From the IMG/VR virus record IMGVR_UViG_2703718777_000015: DNA of 64,000 bases; one strand, 5' to 3'. A model generated the notes under the pieces. That model worked only from the letters and a program-made list of their open reading frames with translations. It did not search any database and was not told the DNA's origin. This DNA comes from a virus. Taxonomy: Duplodnaviria; Heunggongvirae; Uroviricota; Caudoviricetes. Below are positions 2,425 through 61,378 of this stretch, one piece after another (positions within the stretch are counted from its first letter, which is position 1; every line of letters starts with the position of its first letter). The position numbers and the translations under genes were made by a program.

Positions 2425-4344
2425 ATGGAACAGTTCAATATCAATAAAGGGGTGACGATCAAGCCTGGGCTTGACGTGCTTCCCCCGCCAGTGACTGATG
2501 ATGAATATCGCGCATTAATGGCCGGTGAGGACCGCTATCTGATGACGGAATCCAACACCCTGGAGGAAATCGAGGCTACGTTCTTCTATGACACGCCGAT
2601 CCACTGGTGTGCTACGGATTTACTGGAGGCGATTAGTTCTACTCGTTTGCAGTTACACCGGACCATGCAGGCATTTGTCCGGGCATTGAACCAGAAGCTG
2701 AATGGTACCGGAATCTCTGCGGGGAGTGATAAAACGGGGGATGTGGCCCAGAGCGGCGCGCGCGCGATCGGCGGCGCTGAAATTGGCCGGGCACGTAACG
2801 TTAACGGGCTGCCGGTCCTGCCAGCCATTATTCCGCTCAGTGATGGTCAGACTATCAGCATTCTGTTTCATAGCCCGACAGCGGAAAACCGGATCACCAA
2901 TAGCGATACGCTGGTTGCTTTCCAGTTCTTACTGAATAAAAAAGACGTTACTCACACCGTTGCTCCGATGAGTGGACGTGATATGACGCTGGCGCAGGTC
3001 ACCATGAAACTTGCCAACCTTGCAGAGAAAAACTCGGCAAAATTCCAGCGTGCGCAGAAGAAGAAAAAAGCCCTTGTTGATGAAATAACCCAACTACAGG
3101 CTGACAGTGACCAGAAAGAGGATGCCATGAGCGACCTCGCGGATCAGGTGGCAGCGGTAGAAGGGCAGAAGGCAGATCTGGAGCAGAAAATTAACGCTGT
3201 TGCATCGGAAGCGGATTCTCTTTATGAAGAGAATGAGCGTTTGCAGACGGAGATTGATCAGCTCAATCGCACTGGTGGGCGCGATACCATTGCTCCAGCG
3301 GGGATGACTGGTGGGCACTCTCGCGCGCTGACGGATCGCCTTGCCAGTATCAAAAATCGTATGCATATGGACGGGGAAGCGACGCTCAGTAATGGTGCAT
3401 CAATGAAGCAATTCATTGGGGATGGCGAAGGGTATATCCAGTTAACCGATCCGGATGGCAGCGTATACATGATCAAGGCTAAATCCATACAGGGTGTGGA
3501 CATGGCAGATGCGATCGGCAAGCTGTTTAAAGCCTATAAAGCGGGTAATGTATCGGAATATCTGGTCCAACCAGAAGAACATAAACCGGAAAACGTCGAA
3601 CCTGAACCAGCGGAGGATACCGGTAGCTCTTCGCCTGAACCAGAAGTCTCTGTAGGTGCATATCGATATGCCCTGCAAATGCGTCCGGCGGCCCCTGGCG
3701 CAATACCTGAAGGTAACAAAGCGATTCTGCCGCGCCCTGATGAAGGTGACCCGTATTATGAATATGCACGCTACGGCATTGCTACTTACGATACCCCGCT
3801 TTCTGATCAGCAAATGAGTGAGTACGACCTGAAGTTATTGCCTCGCGAGGATTCTTTCGACTTCCTGGCGAAGACACTTACTAATGGTCCGTTTGGCAAA
3901 TATGCACAAAAAGCTCTGGAGCTGGCCACCAGCTCACCAGACGAGTTCCGCGTAATGCTGAAAACTCAGTTTCAAAAAACTTTCCCCAATATTGCGTTTC
4001 CTGGGGGAGCTGGCACCGAGAAAATGGTGCAGAGCATGATCAATGCATTGCAGGCCGAAGTCGGTGAGATTACTCAGCCAGAACCGGCCCCGGCACAGCC
4101 TGATGAAACGGTTAGCGAAGCAGATGCAGAGGCTAATAAAGCCATTGAATATCTCAATAACGTGATGGATATGAAAAGCACTGACATGGCGGAGATCCGT
4201 AATGCCCGGGGTAATGTCCGGGAAGCGATTGCAGCCCTTCAGGCTGCCGGGCGTTTTGAGGAAAACGAAGAGCTGGTTAATGGCGCTGCTCGCCACCTGG
4301 CTGATCTGCTGGTAGCAATCCAGAAAGCGGGGGTAGCGGCATGA
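2425..4344 (+). CDS. darA: DarA-like capsid-internal antirestriction protein
   Basis: 639-aa ORF in hdf-darA-ddrA-ddrB arrangement characteristic of P1. Confidence 0.7.
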   Translation: MEQFNINKGVTIKPGLDVLPPPVTDDEYRALMAGEDRYLMTESNTLEEIEATFFYDTPIHWCATDLLEAISSTRLQLHRTMQAFVRALNQKLNGTGISAGSDKTGDVAQSGARAIGGAEIGRARNVNGLPVLPAIIPLSDGQTISILFHSPTAENRITNSDTLVAFQFLLNKKDVTHTVAPMSGRDMTLAQVTMKLANLAEKNSAKFQRAQKKKKALVDEITQLQADSDQKEDAMSDLADQVAAVEGQKADLEQKINAVASEADSLYEENERLQTEIDQLNRTGGRDTIAPAGMTGGHSRALTDRLASIKNRMHMDGEATLSNGASMKQFIGDGEGYIQLTDPDGSVYMIKAKSIQGVDMADAIGKLFKAYKAGNVSEYLVQPEEHKPENVEPEPAEDTGSSSPEPEVSVGAYRYALQMRPAAPGAIPEGNKAILPRPDEGDPYYEYARYGIATYDTPLSDQQMSEYDLKLLPREDSFDFLAKTLTNGPFGKYAQKALELATSSPDEFRVMLKTQFQKTFPNIAFPGGAGTEKMVQSMINALQAEVGEITQPEPAPAQPDETVSEADAEANKAIEYLNNVMDMKSTDMAEIRNARGNVREAIAALQAAGRFEENEELVNGAARHLADLLVAIQKAGVAA

Positions 4345-4718: not shown

Positions 4719-7706
4719 ATGAGCTTAAGCGATCAGGTGGTTATGGCCACCAGCATAGAAACGCTGATCGAGCTGCTAAAGAACCTGCCCGATTATGGGC
4801 GGGTTTCGTATGTGGTGACAGCGAAGGGAGACGAGGTAAAAACAGCGTTTGATATCGTCGATGCCTCGGCTCTTTTGGTATCCAATACTCTGGACGGGAA
4901 AATTAATCCGGACTATCCCCAGGAACTTCAGCCGCGCGACCGGACCCGCGCATCCAGCCTTCTTCAGGTTAACCAGATATCCAAAGATTTGCGACCTGCT
5001 CAGCTTACCGATTCCGGTTTATCCAGCCATGGCGCGCCGATAATTGGTGAGGACAATGCCGTTGAGTCGGGTAATGGACGGACCATGGGGATCATTAAAG
5101 CCTATCAGGACGGCAATGCGGATCGGTATCGGGAGTATCTGATTGAACATGCGACCGAATTCGGCATACGACCTGAAAAGGTTGAATCAATGACGGCCCC
5201 GGTACTGGTGCGCCGCCGGTTAACTAAGGTTGACCGCGTTCAGTTTGCCAAGGACTCAAATATTTCTGATCTTCAGGAAATGGCAGCCAGTGAAAAGGCT
5301 TTTGTTGATGCCGACAACATAACTTCGGCGATGATGGCGCTGTTTAACCCGTCAGAAAGCGGAGATCTGCTTAGCCGCAGTAATGACGCGTTTATCCGCG
5401 GATTCATGACGCAAGTTGGTGCCACACAGGCTGCTGGCCTTGTAACGGAAGATGGGCGACCAACACGGCAACTTGTAGACCGTATACAAAACGCGATCTT
5501 TGCCAAGGCATATAAGGATGCGCGCCTAGTAAGGATGGTTGCAGAAGAACCTGATCCAGATATGCGTAATGTTCTGACGGCGCTTAATGCGGCAGCCAAT
5601 GATTTTGTCCAGATGCAGGCTTTATCAGGTGAAGCGCACAAGCAGGCTGTGACAACTATTGTTGATGGTATTGAGACAGCGGATAGTCTCGATAAAAAGG
5701 CGCTGGCGGCATTGAAAGATGCGGTAGACCTGGTAAGGCAATCGAAGGAGTCAGGCCAACATATTACCGATGTTATTGCTCAGGGGGATATGTTCAGCGA
5801 AACAGCCCCGGAAGTGAAAGCTCTCGCGTTGTTCATCGTCGCGAATAACCGTAGCGCGAAGCGTATGGCCACCGCCTTTAAATTGATGGCTCAACGTATC
5901 AATGATGAGTTACAGCACCAGGGCCAGGCGCTGGGGGATATGTTTGGCGGTGGTGATGTGTCGTTACAGGATATCCTTCGCCAGGTGTCTCAGGAACTGG
6001 AAAACGAAGGCATGCAAGGGATATCCGGCGGTCTTTTCGAGTCCGTTTCCGGCGGTAGTTACAACGGTGTTGCTCCATATACCAGTTTGCTATTACATCG
6101 GGCATCCGGCATCAAAGACATTATTCATCTGATCAGGCTGCTTTCCCGTACAGATCCCCAGGATGAACAGCTTGTACAAGTGCTTGCGCATTTTGTTCGA
6201 ATGCCTGTTGCCGACGTGAAAAAATGGTGCCGATTATTCGGTATCAGCAATTCGTTACTTCGCGGCTTGTTAAATCACGCATCCTCCCTTGGGCGCGATG
6301 GCTTTGACGAGATAGCGCAGGCGATAAAAAACGGAGATATGCCACCAGCTATTGACTGGTTTTCCATTCGCCCAACCAGGGTGAAAGCATTCCTTAGCGC
6401 GGCGCATTCGGCATCACCATTGGCAGAAATGGTTCAGAGGTTGTCGCTCATATTCACAGACCATACCGCGTTGGGTGATCTGACTCTGGACGAGATGAAA
6501 GAAGCCTCCATTCAGTGGGCCGATCAACAAAATGAGGTTAACTCAGACTTCTTGCCAGCATTCAGGAAGGCCGTTAGTAAAGCGGATGATGCCCGTGGAA
6601 TTCTGAAGGCATTTAAGGCATTGCAAAGTCGGGTTAATAAACATGTCGGTGATATTGATGGGGTAACGGCGGAAGGCAGGGATATCCTTAAAGAGCACGG
6701 CATAACGCCAGAGTTTATTGATGAGATCAGGACGGATATGCAGCGTGAGGTCGTATCGTCCCTGCAAATTGTAGCCAGAGCGTTGGCGGATGCTAATCCG
6801 AAGAGTGCGGCCATTGTTAACCGGGTTATTGGTGATATTGAAGCATCGGAGGGCATGGGGGCGCTGAAACTCTTCCTTTCGCGAGCGTTTAATCCTAACG
6901 GCAATATTCTCCCTGGCATTATTGGTGAGGCTAAAAAGTATGTCAGTGAAGAAGAACTTGAGCAGCTTGACCAACTACTTAAGCGATTCTCATATAACCC
7001 GCAGACACGCTGGCAAATGAATCAGCGAAGTATGGGTTCGGTCCACGAGAAAGTGTTATCTGCCATGAACAGTGCGATCGCAAACTCATCCGTATCTGAA
7101 GAAAAAGCTCTTGAGTGGGCCGACTCTTTTATCACGGAAGAAGTGGAAGAAGCCCGCGCTGGACAGAATGGTGGGATAGACCTGCGCAAGGAACTTGCTG
7201 ATATTTATCGCCTGACCGGCGGGAAAATATCGACCTTATCAAAAGTGGTTCACCACCAGGGAAGGGCATATGCAAATCTAAATGGTGTTGTTGCTGTCAA
7301 TTTGAACGATGAAAATGCAAGTGCACTGTGGCACGAGCTGGGTCATCATCTTGAGTACAGTAACCCTGGTTTGTTAGAGAAAGCCCGGTCATTCCTGAAG
7401 GCCAATGTTGAAGGAGATAAGCCATCTTTCGTTAATATCGGTGGGCGTGGCAAGCCTGAATGGTGCTTCAGATCTCGATTGAGTAATATTTATATGGCGA
7501 AGGTATACCCGCCAGTCTCAGTGAGTAACTCCGGGAAAATTCGGCAGAAATCACCGACCATTTCCAAAACGTCAGCAACGGAAGTATTCTCTATGGCTCT
7601 TCAGTTGTATCATGACAAAGAGGCCGCTGCCGCATCACTGATGAATGGTGACGGATTGCTGGAACTGTTATTAGGTGTGGCAAAGGAGCTAAATAATGCA
7701 GATTAA
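4719..7706 (+). CDS. ddrB: DdrB-like large antirestriction-associated protein
   Basis: 995-aa ORF following ddrA, no IS element between them. Confidence 0.55.
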   Translation: MSLSDQVVMATSIETLIELLKNLPDYGRVSYVVTAKGDEVKTAFDIVDASALLVSNTLDGKINPDYPQELQPRDRTRASSLLQVNQISKDLRPAQLTDSGLSSHGAPIIGEDNAVESGNGRTMGIIKAYQDGNADRYREYLIEHATEFGIRPEKVESMTAPVLVRRRLTKVDRVQFAKDSNISDLQEMAASEKAFVDADNITSAMMALFNPSESGDLLSRSNDAFIRGFMTQVGATQAAGLVTEDGRPTRQLVDRIQNAIFAKAYKDARLVRMVAEEPDPDMRNVLTALNAAANDFVQMQALSGEAHKQAVTTIVDGIETADSLDKKALAALKDAVDLVRQSKESGQHITDVIAQGDMFSETAPEVKALALFIVANNRSAKRMATAFKLMAQRINDELQHQGQALGDMFGGGDVSLQDILRQVSQELENEGMQGISGGLFESVSGGSYNGVAPYTSLLLHRASGIKDIIHLIRLLSRTDPQDEQLVQVLAHFVRMPVADVKKWCRLFGISNSLLRGLLNHASSLGRDGFDEIAQAIKNGDMPPAIDWFSIRPTRVKAFLSAAHSASPLAEMVQRLSLIFTDHTALGDLTLDEMKEASIQWADQQNEVNSDFLPAFRKAVSKADDARGILKAFKALQSRVNKHVGDIDGVTAEGRDILKEHGITPEFIDEIRTDMQREVVSSLQIVARALADANPKSAAIVNRVIGDIEASEGMGALKLFLSRAFNPNGNILPGIIGEAKKYVSEEELEQLDQLLKRFSYNPQTRWQMNQRSMGSVHEKVLSAMNSAIANSSVSEEKALEWADSFITEEVEEARAGQNGGIDLRKELADIYRLTGGKISTLSKVVHHQGRAYANLNGVVAVNLNDENASALWHELGHHLEYSNPGLLEKARSFLKANVEGDKPSFVNIGGRGKPEWCFRSRLSNIYMAKVYPPVSVSNSGKIRQKSPTISKTSATEVFSMALQLYHDKEAAAASLMNGDGLLELLLGVAKELNNAD

Positions 7707-57179: not shown

Positions 57180-57631
57180 CCTCTCACTCCATTATTTAAC
57201 GAATAAAAAAGCTGCGGTGCCGGGTGCCTCCCGGTATCCTTTGGCTGGTTATCTACCGTGGACGGGGAAACAAGGAGAAATAATGGACAGATATAACCAT
57301 TTCCCCGCGTGCGCTTAGCCGCATTCACCGCAACGGAAAGAGCATTCTTGGTGGACCTGTAGATTGGGATATGACCCCGTTACGCCAATGTTCTCAACGT
57401 TGTAGTGCCGGTTACGGTTCCGGCCAGGCCTCTTCCTCAACGTGGTGTTCTCCATACGGACTACCGTTTATTGGTCGTTCCTGCGGTTTATGTTGTGAAG
57501 CCAGATGCTTATCTTCTGGTTGCTTCAAAGAGCTGCACTTCCTCACAACGGTAAGGGTACTTCGTAGGGATTCGAACCCTCTGCCAAGCTCGGCGATCTC
57601 CGACGTCGCAAAATACCCTTACCTGTTGTGC

Positions 57632-57706
57632 TGGTGCCGATTAACGGACTCGAACCGCTGACATCCTGCTTACAAGGCAGGCGCTCTACCAACTGAGCTA
57701 AACCGG
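57632..57706 (-). tRNA. tRNA-Thr (anticodon UGU)
   Basis: Cloverleaf with GCTCAGTTGGTAGAGC D-arm, CTTGTAA anticodon loop, GGTTCGAGTCC T-arm, encoded CCA; approximate. Confidence 0.7.
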
Positions 57707-57708
57707 CA

Positions 57709-57784
57709 TTGGCGATGGTGGATGGATTTGAACCATCGACCCGTTGATTAACAGTCAACCGCTCTAACCGCTGAGCTACACCAT
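57709..57784 (-). tRNA. tRNA-Asn (anticodon GUU)
   Basis: Cloverleaf with CTGTTAA anticodon loop, GGTTCAAATCC T-arm, encoded CCA; approximate. Confidence 0.7.
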
Positions 57785-58439
57785 CACTTGCCGGGTACGT
57801 CTCCGGCGAGGGCTTCCACCTCCGTATGCTTTTCGGCGCACCGCGCCCTGGCTGCAATTCGGTAACAGGGGATGCATAACCCTGGCTTCCAGCGTGATTA
57901 GCGCTTTCAGCATGACGGGATATACCCGTAAATTCGTGGAACTGTACCCAAAGTGCTGTTAAGCACCGCTGTTACGCTGAAAAGAAGACGCAACAGGAAA
58001 GGACGCTGACCAACAGATGGCCCCTTCTCGTTCATCTGGTTAATCACACCAGCGCCCTTACCTGTTGTGCCTCCCCGTTCCCTAATACACAGACGGGGAC
58101 ACTCTGCGGTCGATTTTTTGACGGGGGGCGACTCATACCCCGTGGCGTCTGGCTTCTTAGGCCGCTACCATCATCAGATCATCGTTTGCATTTACTTTAA
58201 TGGTCAGTTTCTAAACCGCCGCAAAGTCGCTAACCATGACGAAAACCCTGAAAAAAACGCCCACCCGAAGATGGGCAAACTGGAAGCTCGTAACGCACTT
58301 CGGAGTTGCCACTTAGGCGCATGGTCAACCTGGCAACTCGGTGGTTTGTCTGGGAGGACTAGGCCCAGCCATGCTTACCGCCGCGCCTGTCGCGGCTAAC
58401 AGCTAAATCGCTTTATAAATCACGATTCATTGAGGCGAT

Positions 58440-58467
58440 ATTACACTAATAAATTTATTAGGGCAAT
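58440..58467. promoter_or_regulatory. Palindromic double C1 operator (ATTACACTAATAAATTTATTAGGGCAAT)
   Basis: Two overlapping inverted operator half-matches at head of the tRNA-plp-ban transcription unit; approximate. Confidence 0.5.
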
Positions 58468-60476
58468 ATAGCTAAAACGTCATGAGCTACACCTCGAGTG
58501 TCCCCCTTACAAGACACAGAACGTCTGGCAAAAAGAGGTTCCACTCTGAAGCCACTGTCATGATAAAGCTCTCTGATATTTGGCGCGCCACTGTTAGTAA
58601 TGAGAACCTTTGCACCTCGGCGATGAGCATCCGTCAACAGAGACACCAGGCGTTTTTGCTCTTCAAACTTAAAGTCATGACCGGAATAGTTCGTGAACCC
58701 CTCTGTATTGGGGAGCGGTTCATACGGCGGATCGCAAAAGATGACATCTCCTTCTCCGGCAGCTTCAATCACCGCTGAAAAATCACCACATACAAACTCA
58801 GACCGCCCTTCCGCACCGAGGAAGGCTTCCATCTCCTGCAATGGGAAATACGGAGTTTTATACTTCCCATAACCGACATTGAACTCACCGGCCTGGTTGT
58901 AACGCGTCAATCCGTTAAAACAATGTCGGTTCAGGAACAAAAACGCCGCTGCGCGATGTAAATCATCATAGACTTGTTTGTTAAACGCATTCCGTACTGC
59001 CAGGTATCCTTCCTGTGTGTTGTAGTCCTGGAAGAAACGATGTGCCAGAGTGATAAGTGAATGCGCCTCGCGTTGCAGAGTCTTGTAAAAGTTAATCAGG
59101 TCAGCATTCACATCATTTAGCAGATTTTCATGGTATCCGGCATTCATGAAGACAGCTCCGCCACCAACGAAAGGTTCAATCAGGCGCTTCCCTTCTGGCA
59201 AATAGCGAAAGATTTGTTCCAGAACACCAAATTTTCCACCAGCCCATTTGAATATGGACCGTTCGAATTCTGCCGCTGGTTTAACTTTTCGCTCTTTTGT
59301 TTCACTTCCTTCTTTCTGCCGACATACGGCCTTAGTAATCCGATCGCCAATCCAGCGCATTACTGGTATTGCCATACTATTGCCGATCGCTTTGTAACGC
59401 GGTCCGTCAGCTGCAAGCATCGCGGCCTCTTCTTCGCTTAAATCTGGATAGTGATTGCGAAGATATGCCAGTTCATCTGAATTAACTTTTTTACGCTTTT
59501 CCGTCGGGATCAACGTATGCCCATCAGGAAAACCTTGCAGCCTTTCACATTCGACAGGGGTAAGACGGCGCATTCTACCGTCACCGAGCAATACAATTGG
59601 GGCTTCATGGTTACATGTCAAAGTTGGTGCCGAATTATCTGTTTTTATCTCAGCCCCTCCTTGCCCATGTGCCATGGCAATTATGTTTGAATCATCGCAA
59701 GATCTGATAGCGATGTTTGAAGTATATCGGGTAGTTTCCTTCCCCTCGCCTCTGCTCGGCGCAATATCCCGGCGCACGCTTTCGAACTCAAAAAGTACCG
59801 TTGCGGGATCGAGGTCTGTTCGAGCACTTGCGACAACAAACACGCGTCGGCGTCGTTGTGCCACTCCGAAGTATTGGGCATCAAGGATTCTCCAGGCCAC
59901 CTTTCGCTGCGGTCCATAAATACAACCACACTGCGGCCACTTTGGAGCATGGCAACCGGTTTTGACATCCCACCGCCAGAACGCGTTACTTTTTCCTGAT
60001 TCAGGTCGATTACCAAGTTCGAATGGCGCATCTTCTCCAGCCAATCCGGCAAGGAAACATCCGAACGCGTTATCTGCTGATGACAGGACTCCTGGGACAT
60101 TTTCCCAGACGATAACGGCTGGTTTGAGAAATGACTCAGCCCGTTTGTCGTCAATTGCATTTGCAAGCTCCACATACTTTAAAGTTAGCGCGCCGCGTTC
60201 ATCATCAAGCCCACCACGTAAGCCCGCGATACTGAATGCCTGACAAGGCGTACCCCCGACGAGCACATCAGGGGATTCGATTTCCCCAGCCAGGACTTTT
60301 TTGGCAAGTTTTGTCATGTCGCCAAGGTTGGCGACATGGGGCCAGCGGTGCGCAAGAACGGCAGATGGAAAAGGCTCGATTTCAGCAAACCACGCCGGAC
60401 GCATACCCAACGGTTCCCAGGCAATACTCGCGGCTTCAATTCCACTGCAAACAGATCCATAGCACAGCTCTTTCAC
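58458..60476 (-). CDS. dmt: Dmt, fused C5-cytosine / N6-adenine DNA methyltransferase
   Basis: 672-aa ORF; N-terminal C5-MTase motifs ([14 protein letters not shown]) and C-terminal Dam-like motifs (FKWAGGK, DPPY). Confidence 0.85.
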
Positions 60477-61378
60477 TGCTTAGCCTCTCCACCAAGGGCA
60501 TTTACCAGAGCATCAACCAGGCACGAAATTTCACTGGTCAACAGGAAGAAATCTGCGTCCAGTCGCTGCGCAACATCTTCACTATCAATATCAGAGTTCT
60601 GCTCAAGCAATTCATCCGCAAATTTGACGCTGGTAAGGCTGAAGTTATGGTCCAGTGTAAATTTAATGCGGTTCTGCCAGTCGAGTGCCAACTTAGTGAC
60701 GAGCTTGCCAGCTTCCAGGTGTGTGGAAATTTCATCGCTTCCCAAATCCTGCTTTTTCACTCGGGCAATACCGCCATCCTCAAGCACTGCCTTAAGTTCT
60801 GCCGCATCCCCCATTTGAAATCCCTGTGGAGCACTACCATCACGTACCCAGTCGGTCAGCGTTAATTCAATGGGATTTTCAACACTTAGGGGAACAACAG
60901 GAAGAGAACCCAGAGATTTACGCATAAGCGCGAGCATATCCTCTGCCTGCCGCGTGCTGGCATTGATATAGATACGTTTAGTTGAACCGTCGTAGATCGC
61001 CTGGATAACAGAAAACTTTGAAAAAGCCCGTGGCAGAAGAGAATGCAGAACTTCGTCTTTCAGGGAGTCCTTCTCTGTTTTCTTCAGTTTACGCGCTTGT
61101 TCTTGCTCAAGTTTTTCAATTTTTTCTTGAATAGCTCGCTGGATAACCGGCGGGGGAAGAATTTTTGTTTCGCGCTTTGCTTCAACAAGGATAAAACCAT
61201 TTCCATGCATAGCGATAACTTCGGAATTATCACCAAATGGAGATACAAAACCGAACTTGGCCATATCCTGACTACCGCATGGCGTGAAAAGGATCATTTT
61301 CTTTTTATCTTCTAAGTCGGTCAGATCCGCCTCACGAGAAAGTTTATAAATAGTAATGTTTTTCCAGTGCTTAAACAT
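60473..61378 (-). CDS. hrdC: HrdC, RdgC-like recombination-associated protein
   Basis: Track ORF 60473..61492; start at internal Met gives about 301 aa closely resembling E. coli RdgC ([38 protein letters not shown]). Confidence 0.8.

Follow-up and report, generated by a model that had tools for sequence, protein, structure and literature searches.

In rRNA operons, RNase III stems flank 16S and 23S rRNA and the spacer tRNAs. In phage T7, RNase III cuts polycistronic RNAs at conserved hairpins, such as R1.1, that have an internal irregularity, and the tRNA cluster of phage T4 holds non-tRNA stable RNAs (species 1 and 2) that are co-processed within the array. RNase III processing of the lambda Q-dependent late RNA is said to have been reported by Daniels et al. 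in 1988. The locus analyzed here, in which two long hairpins frame a pair of tRNA genes, was compared with these systems.

The window, the whole 64,000-nucleotide stretch of DNA that was analyzed, is a P1-like plasmid prophage. At this locus, it was ~98.5–98.7% identical to phage P1 and collinear with it from 57359 to 58500. All the elements found (Table 1) lie on the minus strand within the leader of the C1-controlled ban operon; on the same strand, the P1 annotation contains the ban promoter and operator, a dicF-like region, and two tRNAs. The counterpart of Oban and Pban is the start of the transcript spanning all the listed leader elements, and the STnc100/PasD-like module is the last part of the non-coding leader segment. 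The terminator-like site is located between Pban and HP1, and thus, transcription of the hairpins needs read-through or another promoter. A simple scan of 56900–58600 retrieved no sigma-70-like promoter. HP3 is intact in P1, and the absence of its 5' arm from the window is part of a 255-bp difference from P1.

Table 1. Elements of the ban leader in the window, with the evidence for each.
Feature	Coordinates	Strand	Basis or remark
Inverted repeat, counterpart of P1 ban promoter and C1 operator Oban	58435..58472	-	P1 comparison
Intrinsic-terminator-like hairpin and T-run	58258..58277	-	inside counterpart of P1 'dicF-like' region (~58241-58342)
Small hairpin 'up1' CCCCGUCUGUGUAUUAGGGAACGGGG, directly 5' of HP1	58073..58098	-	kept in P1-like loci
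HP1, paralogous long hairpin upstream of tRNAs	57986..58072	-	fold, family alignment, covariation
tRNA-Asn(gtt)	57710..57785	-	ARAGORN and Rfam, 74.5 bits
tRNA-Thr(tgt)	57632..57707	-	ARAGORN and Rfam, 72.9 bits
HP2, the 'tRNA-like palindrome'	57544..57631	-	fold, homologues with same stem, covariation
HP2 5' arm GCACAACAGGUAAGGGUAUUUUG	57609..57631	-	direct-repeat copy 1 (57616-57631) makes up its first 16 nt
Small hairpin UCGG-AGAUCG-CCGA, second arm of predicted three-way junction in HP2 insert	57590..57603	-	fold
T-arm-like hairpin AGGG-UUCGAAU-CCCU in HP2 apical insert	57566..57580	-	sequence and fold
HP2 3' arm CGAAGUACCCUUACCGUUGUG	57544..57564	-	sequence and fold
Conserved 3' tail 't1' GAGGAAGUGCAGCUCUUUGAAGCAACCAGAAGAUAAGCAUCUGGCUUCACAAC	57492..57543	-	3' of HP2-type hairpins in P1-like and SSU5-like elements
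Orphan 3' arm GAAUGCUCUUUCCGUUGCG of third hairpin HP3	57329..57347	-	comparison with P1
STnc100/PasD-like sRNA module, U-run at end	57213..57332	-	Rfam 33 bits, below gathering score 47; 933W homologue

A sequence-only reading of the window had pointed to a 16-mer occurring at about 57616 and 58055 and bracketing the two tRNAs with about 270 bp of non-coding DNA. The repeat search found CCCTTACCTGTTGTGC exactly at 57616–57631 and 58055–58070, both on the plus strand, as its two occurrences in the window. The copies are spaced by 439 bp, and tRNA-Thr, tRNA-Asn, and 269 bp without a convincing gene lie between the 16-mers, as had been described. By our own estimates, the chance expectation for an exact 16-mer pair is ~0.5 anywhere in 64 kb, which is not rare, and ~0.007 for a pair less than 500 bp apart; the core CAACAGGWAAGG gave four matches against 0.41 expected. 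The long imperfect inverted repeat that was noted as ending in the first copy is also real, with CACAACGGTAAGGGTA (57544–57559) and TACCCTTACCTGTTGTG (57614–57630) as its arms. On the minus strand, it is predicted to fold as HP2, which is composed of a conserved ~21 bp stem with a single bulged A and an apical insert (type A); the fold has −45.9 kcal/mol and z = −4.8. The CCA of tRNA-Thr is followed immediately by the first base of HP2. The 5' arm of HP1 holds the second 16-mer copy, and HP1 has a U.U mismatch at the position of the U-A of HP2. Its predicted stem is ~33 bp (−42 to −60 kcal/mol, z of about −4.4 to −5.3). For HP1 and HP2 together, z ranged from −4.4 to −6.9, and none of 200 shuffles was as stable. 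HP1 and HP2 represent the same conserved phage RNA module, present in two copies, and the 16-nt repeat is the 5' arm that they have in common. The sequence-only reading had overlooked that both 16-mers serve as 5' arms, each in a long hairpin of its own. In the Rfam scan, HP1 gave a match to a mir-465-like hairpin.

Both hairpins carry the constant stem of a family, CACAAC(A)GGUAAGRGYR...YRCYCUUWCCGUUGUG, of which ~17–21 bp are constant. Two scans of viral contigs for the arms gave at least 120 loci each, and in the related loci examined, the stem was identical or near-identical to that of lambda and of ~230 distinct copies. The same arms with unrelated inserts were found in P1-like and SSU5-like phage-plasmids, and the family is present in many lambdoid late leaders in the order Q, hairpin, and holin/lysozyme genes. 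The lambda member (NC_001416, 44786–44864) lies 5 nt after the T-run of tR'. The positions of the hairpins recur: the hairpin can begin at the CCA of the last tRNA or overlap with it; it ends 1–3 nt upstream of a tRNA in loci L262 and L342; and it directly follows a terminator T-run in lambda, L032, L064, and L356. There are one to four copies per genome, all within one leader and invariably sense to the operon and the tRNAs, while the order of modules in the relatives is combinatorial. A junction consisting of GGUGAAU plus a hairpin follows the 3' arm in many members and also opens the STnc100-like module of the window. The members pair at the RNA level, keep to these positions, and are modular. 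On this evidence, the option 'RNA processing signal' of the sequence-only reading is favored, as a conserved RNA-level hairpin in many phages abuts 3' or 5' tRNA ends or terminators and its stem matches that of the hairpin after lambda tR'.

No family member was found near ileZ-argN-argO of 933W, despite the tRNAs in its late leader, in phi80, or in the examined regions of the E. coli K-12 cryptic prophages DLP12 and Qin. Owing to the absence from these K-12 regions, the published K-12 RNase III maps are of no help. The M3 RNA of phi80 was considered as a possible cargo and rejected; it is the annotated oop homologue, and its phage has no family member. Rfam at E ≤ 10 (55500–59000, the lambda leader, and 24 related loci) contained no family for the hairpin or the inserts, and a literature search by sequence words yielded nothing relevant to the hairpin. 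Scanning genome contigs (596 Gb) with CTWACCGTTGTGRKGAA, which has 14 specified bases, gave matches from all phyla, that is, matches by chance. ARAGORN gave no support for an intron-containing tRNA in L116.

Pairing of the arms was evaluated in 34 distinct arm pairs, in which 96.6% of the cells were paired compared with 36–50% when the 3' partners were slid. Compensatory changes were observed in four pairs, and none of 500 shuffles equaled the observed covariation score. In HP2-type stems, 98.6% of the cells were paired on the tRNA-sense strand and 92.7% on the opposite strand, with 30 and one G.U cells, respectively; the HP1 stem showed no strand asymmetry (90.6% vs 91.9%). A 44 aa ORF at 57412–57546, with its start (GUG/AUG) in the 3' arm, was rejected as a gene because the lambda frame ends after three codons, the t1 tail differs from the t2 tail, and the substitutions in SSU5-like elements are not synonymous-biased. 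The same covariation decides on another reading of the 3' arm, which in most variants reads UGCUCUUU, the start of the rrn boxA, and could therefore be a Nus-factor antitermination element. UGCUCUUU or UGCUCUUA was found in types B to H and in lambda, and in rrn operons, boxA elements lie beside RNase III stems and spacer tRNAs. However, the positions of the motif (columns 40–43) covary with the 5' arm, HP2 of the window reads ACCCUUAC and has no conserved single-stranded GCUCUUUA core, and the motif would be sequestered in a very stable stem once made. We rejected the boxA reading for its covariation with the opposite arm and regard it as extremely improbable.

A stem of at least 20 bp has the size of an RNase III substrate. 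The predicted stem was at least 20 bp in nine of nine variants folded, and the predicted stems of HP2 (21 bp) and HP1 (~33 bp) have the length of about two turns (~20 bp or more) of such substrates. We favor the reading of HP1 and HP2 as RNase III-type processing hairpins that free the leader tRNAs and small RNAs, to which we give about an even chance; cleavage by RNase III and its consequences are inferred. In the proposed mechanism, the C1-repressed ban promoter would drive a long, mostly non-coding minus-strand leader in the order dicF-like region with terminator, HP1, tRNA-Asn, tRNA-Thr, HP2, conserved tail, STnc100-like module with terminator, coding genes, and ban. The stem would be the site for a double-strand-specific endonuclease of the RNase III type, and its cutting would part the tRNAs and small RNAs from their neighbors in the polycistronic transcript, give exonucleases access for trimming back to the CCA end, and create a new 5' end on the downstream RNA. 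The RNase III stems of rRNA operons act in this way, and the same was reportedly described for the lambda late leader. In lambda, we take the RNase III cuts to be placed in the hairpin at 44786–44864, about +199 to +277 relative to the start of pR'. A literature search found no text that places these cuts, and the lambda late leader contains further helices of 10–16 bp besides the family hairpin.

The shared arms may also serve as short homologies for the loss or swap of modules. The P1-like contig L021 corresponds to the window minus the 439 bp between the 16-mers, and recombination at the shared arms is the simplest explanation of this difference. Comparing P1-like DNA with and without the tRNA pair thus confirmed that the 16-mers bound a presence/absence polymorphism, but not that they are an insertion scar. 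The sequence-only reading had offered the scar of a site-specific insertion of the tRNA cassette as one option; this option is not supported, since the repeats are identical 5' arms of two paralogous hairpins, with no target-site duplication. A related explanation is that the hairpins act as DNA, as folded single-strand recombination sites (integron attC/MITE-like) for tRNA or sRNA cassettes, with the 16-mers as a scar. Constant inverted arms around a variable center, an extrahelical base, the combinatorial module order, and the absence of exactly the inter-repeat segment from L021 agree with such sites, and with one mismatch, the outermost 7 nt (GCACAAC / GTTGTGC) fit the consensus of the attC core, RYYYAAC / GTTRRRY. 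However, the short-homology recombination above accounts for L021, and the lambda-like, P1-like, and SSU5-like hosts share no recombinase, nor is one adjacent. Extra tRNAs (e.g., Tyr) are inserted between Asn and Thr, away from the hairpin borders, and conservation of the 17-nt arms greatly exceeds that of attC sites. The orientation is uniformly sense, and the one to four copies confined to one leader are unlike a MITE. We consider a recombination site very unlikely.

The apical part of the hairpin is interchangeable, with at least ~52 unrelated insert clusters of 37–207 nt on nearly invariant arms. Among the matches listed, seven of the 52 clusters contained T-arm-like hairpins against 0.035 expected, including the type A of the window, type E, and the H/L260 types (two each). 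In the window, the T-arm-like motif that had been noted within the inverted repeat was located (Table 1), and it is part of the replaceable type-A insert and not of the constant stem. The type-A insert is predicted to form a tRNA-like three-way junction, in which the T-arm would be stacked on a 7-bp acceptor-like helix, UAUUUUG/CGAAGUA. The hairpin and this helix are the only tRNA-like parts of HP2, and there is no four-arm cloverleaf, in line with the sequence-only reading. ARAGORN reported nothing for HP2 in standard, lowered-threshold (-ps, -ps80), mitochondrial, intron, or tmRNA (-m) modes, and Rfam RF00005 had no match to 57544–57631 on either strand at E ≤ 10. HP2 belongs neither to tmRNA nor to YrlA; tmRNA-type Rfam matches were located elsewhere and far below threshold.

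These results also bear on the suggestion of a tRNA remnant, namely that the array once had a third tRNA, of which the element is what is left. The perfect T-arm-like hairpin, whose loop is UUCGAAU, and its location beside two real tRNAs agree with decay, as do the additional tRNAs (Tyr, Arg, and Ser) in related arrays, but these are found at other positions. The stem is common to hairpins with entirely different inserts and to lambda, which has no nearby tRNA; the distance from the acceptor-like strand to the T-arm is 28 nt compared with ~42 nt in a tRNA; the anticodon arm is absent; and no tRNA caller reported the element, even at lowered thresholds. Decay of a tRNA gene is a distinctly unlikely origin, and for the whole element, the stem of which is a shared scaffold unrelated to tRNA, it is largely refuted; a tRNA remnant is possible for the T-arm-like insert hairpin only.

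A plain RNase III site leaves unexplained both the ~52 unrelated inserts on nearly invariant arms and the enrichment of T-arm-like hairpins in them. Both count in favor of a rival in which the stem would be a carrier only and the apical insert the functional part, released or displayed as a small structured RNA. The type-A insert could then attract tRNA enzymes, e.g., RNase P, TruB, or TrmA, or serve as a decoy, and the cut could be made by RNase P instead of RNase III; the C4 RNA of P1 is a non-tRNA processed by RNase P. One variant contains a hammerhead core in its insert, which can be counted for a cargo and, as another RNA-cutting device at the same place, also for processing. On the other hand, 45 of the 52 clusters had no T-arm-like hairpin among the matches listed, and no tRNA, tmRNA, or YrlA model scored on HP2. 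The acceptor-like helix runs on as a paired stem, which is unfavorable for bacterial RNase P, the complementarity of the inserts to the rest of the window was at chance level, and no known Rfam family was found in 19 related loci scanned. We consider a functional insert on a carrier stem unlikely, and the broader proposal that phage leader RNAs share the constant stem as a universal 'socket', which presents interchangeable small structured RNAs and, once cut, releases them, is put forward as a similarly speculative idea. Such a socket would be formally like a pri-miRNA scaffold, with at least ~52 unrelated cargos including tRNA-like T-loop modules and a hammerhead ribozyme. If it is true, the cargos would be under diversifying selection, e.g., if they recruited host tRNA-processing enzymes or tRNA-targeting defense enzymes or served as decoys for them, and the T-arm-like insert of the window would be a functional tRNA mimic and not a passive loop.

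The preferred reading as an RNase III-type processing hairpin provides a testable model of how tRNAs and small RNAs are freed from the long transcripts of the P1 ban leader and of lambdoid late leaders. The mosaic, combinatorial tRNA arrays of phages would be explained by the exchange of modules at the shared arms. As an RNA motif, the family is widespread and combines a constant stem with dozens of unrelated inserts. The hairpin is without annotation in the records of P1, lambda, D6, SJ46, and 933W that were examined and is absent from Rfam, although P1 and lambda are among the best-studied phages. Doubtful ORFs, plp in P1 and orf-64 in lambda, overlie it, and recognizing the hairpin corrects genome annotation.

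Among known RNAs, YrlA and other bacterial Y RNAs (Rfam RF02553) resemble HP2 in having a long stem capped by a tRNA-like module with a T-arm. However, the YrlA model did not match HP2, and its one weak match in the window (25.6 bits; gathering score 69) falls on the two genuine tRNAs; the ORFs listed for 55000–60500 included no rsr gene. The STnc100/PasD prophage sRNAs of lambdoid late regions occupy the same neighborhood as the hairpin family, but they are separate downstream modules, and the hairpin lies outside the Rfam model. The T7 and T4 systems have no sequence similarity to the window, and the T7 sites lack large variable inserts. The stems of rRNA operons offer an analogy of mechanism, as the stable RNAs of a polycistronic precursor are framed by long double-stranded stems that allow their release; they pair across the stable RNA, whereas the window hairpins are each local, and the two kinds of stem are unrelated in sequence. 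In principle, however, the 5' arm of HP1, being identical to that of HP2, might also pair with the HP2 3' arm.

The closest counterpart is the lambda hairpin after tR', the stem of which is homologous, with 18/20 nt matching in the 5' arm and 18/24 nt in the 3' arm. The stem differences between lambda and the window fall mainly at positions that pair with each other, and lambda has a U.U mismatch where HP2 has the bulged A. In both cases, the hairpin is on the sense strand in the leader of a regulated phage operon, comes immediately after a structured 3'-end element, and carries an insert atop the stem, although the apical inserts are unrelated. The lambda hairpin follows a terminator, whereas in the window, two copies are located after and before the tRNAs.

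The 16-mer CCCTTACCTGTTGTGC was found by a repeat search of the window to occur exactly twice, and the tRNA-Thr and tRNA-Asn genes lie between the two copies, together with 269 bp containing no convincing gene. The inverted repeat noticed around the first copy was also real. On the minus strand, it folded into a hairpin (HP2) with a stem of approximately 21 bp and one bulged A (-45.9 kcal/mol, z = -4.8), and the stem was capped by a three-way junction carrying a small hairpin and AGGG-UUCGAAU-CCCU. The sequence-only reading had not obtained a cloverleaf, and this element is not a tRNA; ARAGORN (standard, relaxed, mitochondrial, intron, and tmRNA modes) and the Rfam tRNA model were silent. The second copy, whose pairing had been overlooked, is the 5' arm of another long hairpin (HP1), which changes the interpretation of the repeats: the direct repeat is the 5' arm common to HP1 and HP2. 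The 16-mers are not a target-site duplication, and the suggested scar of a tRNA cassette insertion is not supported.

The region shared 98.5-98.7% identity with phage P1, and the two were collinear over 57359-58500. Its P1 counterpart is the leader of the ban operon, which reads along the window's minus strand in the order of a C1-controlled promoter/operator, a "dicF-like region", trnA, trnT and, further on, tciABC, trnI, and ban. The "dicF-like region" of P1 gave no match to the Rfam DicF model at E ≤ 10. As this region contains a clean hairpin with a T-run, resembling an intrinsic terminator, HP1 and the tRNAs can be transcribed only if polymerase starting at Pban reads through it or if there is a second promoter; a simple sigma-70 scan for the latter found none. 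The tciA-tciB-tciC genes of P1 are replaced in the window by a 78-aa ORF and a 275-aa ORF, and for the latter, a near-identical protein of plasmid pVP441 is annotated as an SPFH-domain protein, whilst the annotation in phage Ro157c2YLVW is "putative serine protease". A third tRNA, with the anticodon CAT, scored only 42 bits with several non-standard pairs; it was called Met by ARAGORN, and its P1 homologue is annotated as tRNA-Ile2 (lysidine-type reading of CAT). In a P1-like IncY plasmid (CP142560.1, locus L254), a gene for a TnpB-family RNA-guided endonuclease (2876-4045) is inserted between dmt and the tRNA leader region, and the match to our query region is limited to the HP1 side (window 57841-58100).

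Features of the ban leader region and its surroundings in the window
Feature	Position	Strand	Remark
C1-controlled promoter/operator	~58435-58472	minus	P1 counterpart
"dicF-like region"	~58241-58342	minus	P1 counterpart
Terminator-like hairpin and T-run	58258-58277	minus	inside dicF-like region
HP1	57986-58072	minus	
16-mer, second copy	58055-58070		5' arm of HP1
tRNA-Asn(gtt)	57710-57785	minus	between 16-mers
tRNA-Thr(tgt)	57632-57707	minus	between 16-mers
16-mer, first copy	57616-57631		5' arm of HP2
HP2	57544-57631	minus	
upl/plp ORFs of P1	57371-57661	plus	L001 (P1 locus) 1659-2228
HP3, 3' arm only	57329-57347		
STnc100/PasD-like sRNA module	57213-57332	minus	Rfam RF02076, 33 bits, below gathering score of 47
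78-aa and 275-aa ORFs	56135-57179	minus	
Third tRNA (CAT)	56034-56108	minus	

A conserved tail lies downstream of HP2. The STnc100-like module at 57213-57332 ends in a U-run at ~57205 and overlaps at its 5' end the orphan 3' arm of a third hairpin, HP3. This family copy is complete in P1, immediately 5' of the module. The window and phage SJ46 are without 255 bp of P1, a segment comprising the greater part of upl and the beginning of plp. As the 25-nt repeat GTAACGGGKTCATATCCCAATCTAC stands at both edges of the segment in P1, its absence from the window is most simply explained by a deletion between the two copies. The P1 ORFs upl and plp ("putative lipoprotein") are annotated on the opposite strand over HP2 and the tail, antisense to trnT, and are probably not genes; the same is probable for orf-64 of lambda, which lies across tR' and the hairpin's 5' arm there.

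When the sequence downstream of the last tRNA was aligned among P1-like and SSU5-like phage-plasmids, both arms of HP2 were conserved, while the intervening 35-60 nt were entirely unlike in four groups. Scanning viral contigs with the 3' arm retrieved at least 120 loci, and a variant of the 5' arm used in the same way retrieved at least another 120. At least ~236 distinct copies in at least ~52 unrelated insert clusters (37-207 nt) shared the stem CACAAC(A)GGUAAGRGYR ... YRCYCUUWCCGUUGUG. The hairpin is often found immediately after a terminator T-run or abutting a tRNA, which may precede or follow it; examples of the latter are L262 and L342, where the tRNA starts 1-3 nt past the 3' arm. Rfam has no family for the stem or any insert among the loci scanned (window region, lambda leader, and related loci), and a full-text literature search for the arm sequences returned nothing relevant. 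The window carries two members, and the remnant of a third, of a family of phage RNA hairpins that is widespread but uncatalogued.

In an alignment restricted to the arms, with 34 distinct copies (N marking the insert and one-base register differences), standard pairs occupied 96.6% of cells, compared with 36-50% when the 3' partners were slid by 1-3 columns; the alignment was made by hand, and these figures lean on the register that we chose. Four pairs showed two-sided changes (e.g., G-C/A-U and C-G/U-A), with a covariation score reached by no shuffle, and the intermediates were wobble pairs (G.U or U.G) when read on the tRNA-sense strand. In HP2-type stems, this strand had 98.6% of cells paired versus 92.7% for the complement (30 versus 1 wobble cells); no such strand asymmetry was present in HP1 stems. 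The hairpin always has the orientation of the operon and the neighbouring tRNAs. Together, the pairing, covariation, strand preference, and constant orientation favour a structure acting in the transcript. The outer 7 nt resemble the core consensus of integron attC; an attC-like DNA site was rejected, as the copies share no recombinase, always have the same orientation, and are few in each genome. The 3' arm of most members (e.g., lambda 44848-44858) contains UGCUCUUU, the same as the first 8 nt of rrn boxA. A boxA was likewise rejected: HP2 lacks the motif, whose positions covary with those of the opposite arm, so the match is probably a by-product of pairing. A small ORF starting in the 3' arm was rejected for lack of conservation, and antisense pairing of inserts within the window was at chance level.

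T-arm-like hairpins, defined by a UUCRAHY loop on a 5-bp stem that closes with G-C, were present in 7 of the 52 insert clusters among the matches listed, against 0.035 expected from shuffled inserts; the "tRNA-like" look thus recurs in part of the family and is not due to chance. They occur, sometimes two per insert, in unrelated inserts (L017 2059-2200, L260, L319, L334, L342, and L271), and the type A insert of HP2 belongs to one of the seven clusters. A decayed tRNA, as had been offered for the whole element, was rejected because the stem is common to lambda and to copies with unrelated inserts. In type A, the T-arm adjoins a 7-bp acceptor-like helix (UAUUUUG/CGAAGUA), but 28 nt and a single small hairpin alone stand where the D and anticodon arms would be. 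T-arm-like inserts may be tRNA fragments captured in tRNA arrays, or they may be functional tRNA mimics; the latter is kept as the main rival and would be the novel case.

The layout of related loci is combinatorial: HP1 is followed by a tRNA set (Asn or Arg, together with Thr and in some cases Tyr), one or two hairpins whose inserts differ, and tails of two kinds, and some loci also have HP3 and tRNA-Ser(tga). The P1-like contig L021 matches the window through the upstream 16-mer and continues straight into an HP2-type hairpin, missing exactly the 439 bp between the 16-mers, which indicates that the arms also serve as short homologies for module loss or exchange. The gain of tRNA-Tyr between Asn and Thr, away from the hairpin borders, argues against cassette insertion at the hairpins. 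In another P1-like viral contig (L116, oriented ~7064-7190), tRNA-Thr keeps its 5' acceptor/D-arm and 3' T-arm/acceptor but has ~55 unrelated nt in place of its middle part, and ARAGORN makes no call even with introns allowed.

We propose that the stem is a site of RNase III-type processing. The analysis shows the family, its pairing, strand preference, positions, and modularity, and from these we infer the enzyme and what its cutting would bring about. In each of the variants that were folded, the predicted duplex was continuous over at least 20 bp and had a single irregularity. The stem is placed precisely where a stable-RNA module (tRNA end, terminator, or sRNA module) meets the rest of the polycistronic phage transcript. 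From what is established on E. coli tRNA 3' maturation, a stable hairpin right after CCA would block 3' exonucleolytic trimming unless it is cut. These points and the lambda precedent underlie the proposal. In a lambdoid locus (L064 2138-2184, IMGVR_UViG_3300000333_000017), the insert contains a hammerhead type I core, CUGAUGAGUCC...GGACGAAACGC...GUC (24.7 bits, E = 8e-4, below the gathering score of 34), which is at least consistent with the hairpin site as a place of RNA cutting. A plain RNase III site has no need of inserts that are unrelated in dozens of cases and yet sit on arms that hardly vary, and this diversity, with the T-loop hairpin enrichment, is the part that could prove new.

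As to its kind, the hairpin is most likely a processing hairpin of the ordinary sort and a homologue of the one in lambda. Lambda has the same hairpin (NC_001416, 44786-44864), starting 5 nt past the T-run of tR', the 6S RNA terminator. Daniels et al. (1988) are reported to have described RNase III processing sites in the lambda Q-dependent late transcript. The lambda leader has further, shorter helices besides this hairpin, so we infer the link, with the processing sites probably in a stem just beyond tR'. In other lambdoid contigs, the hairpin is flanked on one side by an antiterminator Q gene (Pfam Antiterm or Phage_antitermQ) and on the other by those for holin and lysozyme. Phage 933W has a clear STnc100 copy after stxB. 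STnc100/PasD has been sited in lambdoid late regions (2026 preprint), so modules are common to the P1 ban leader and lambdoid late leaders, and the hairpin family connects both with SSU5-like tRNA arrays.
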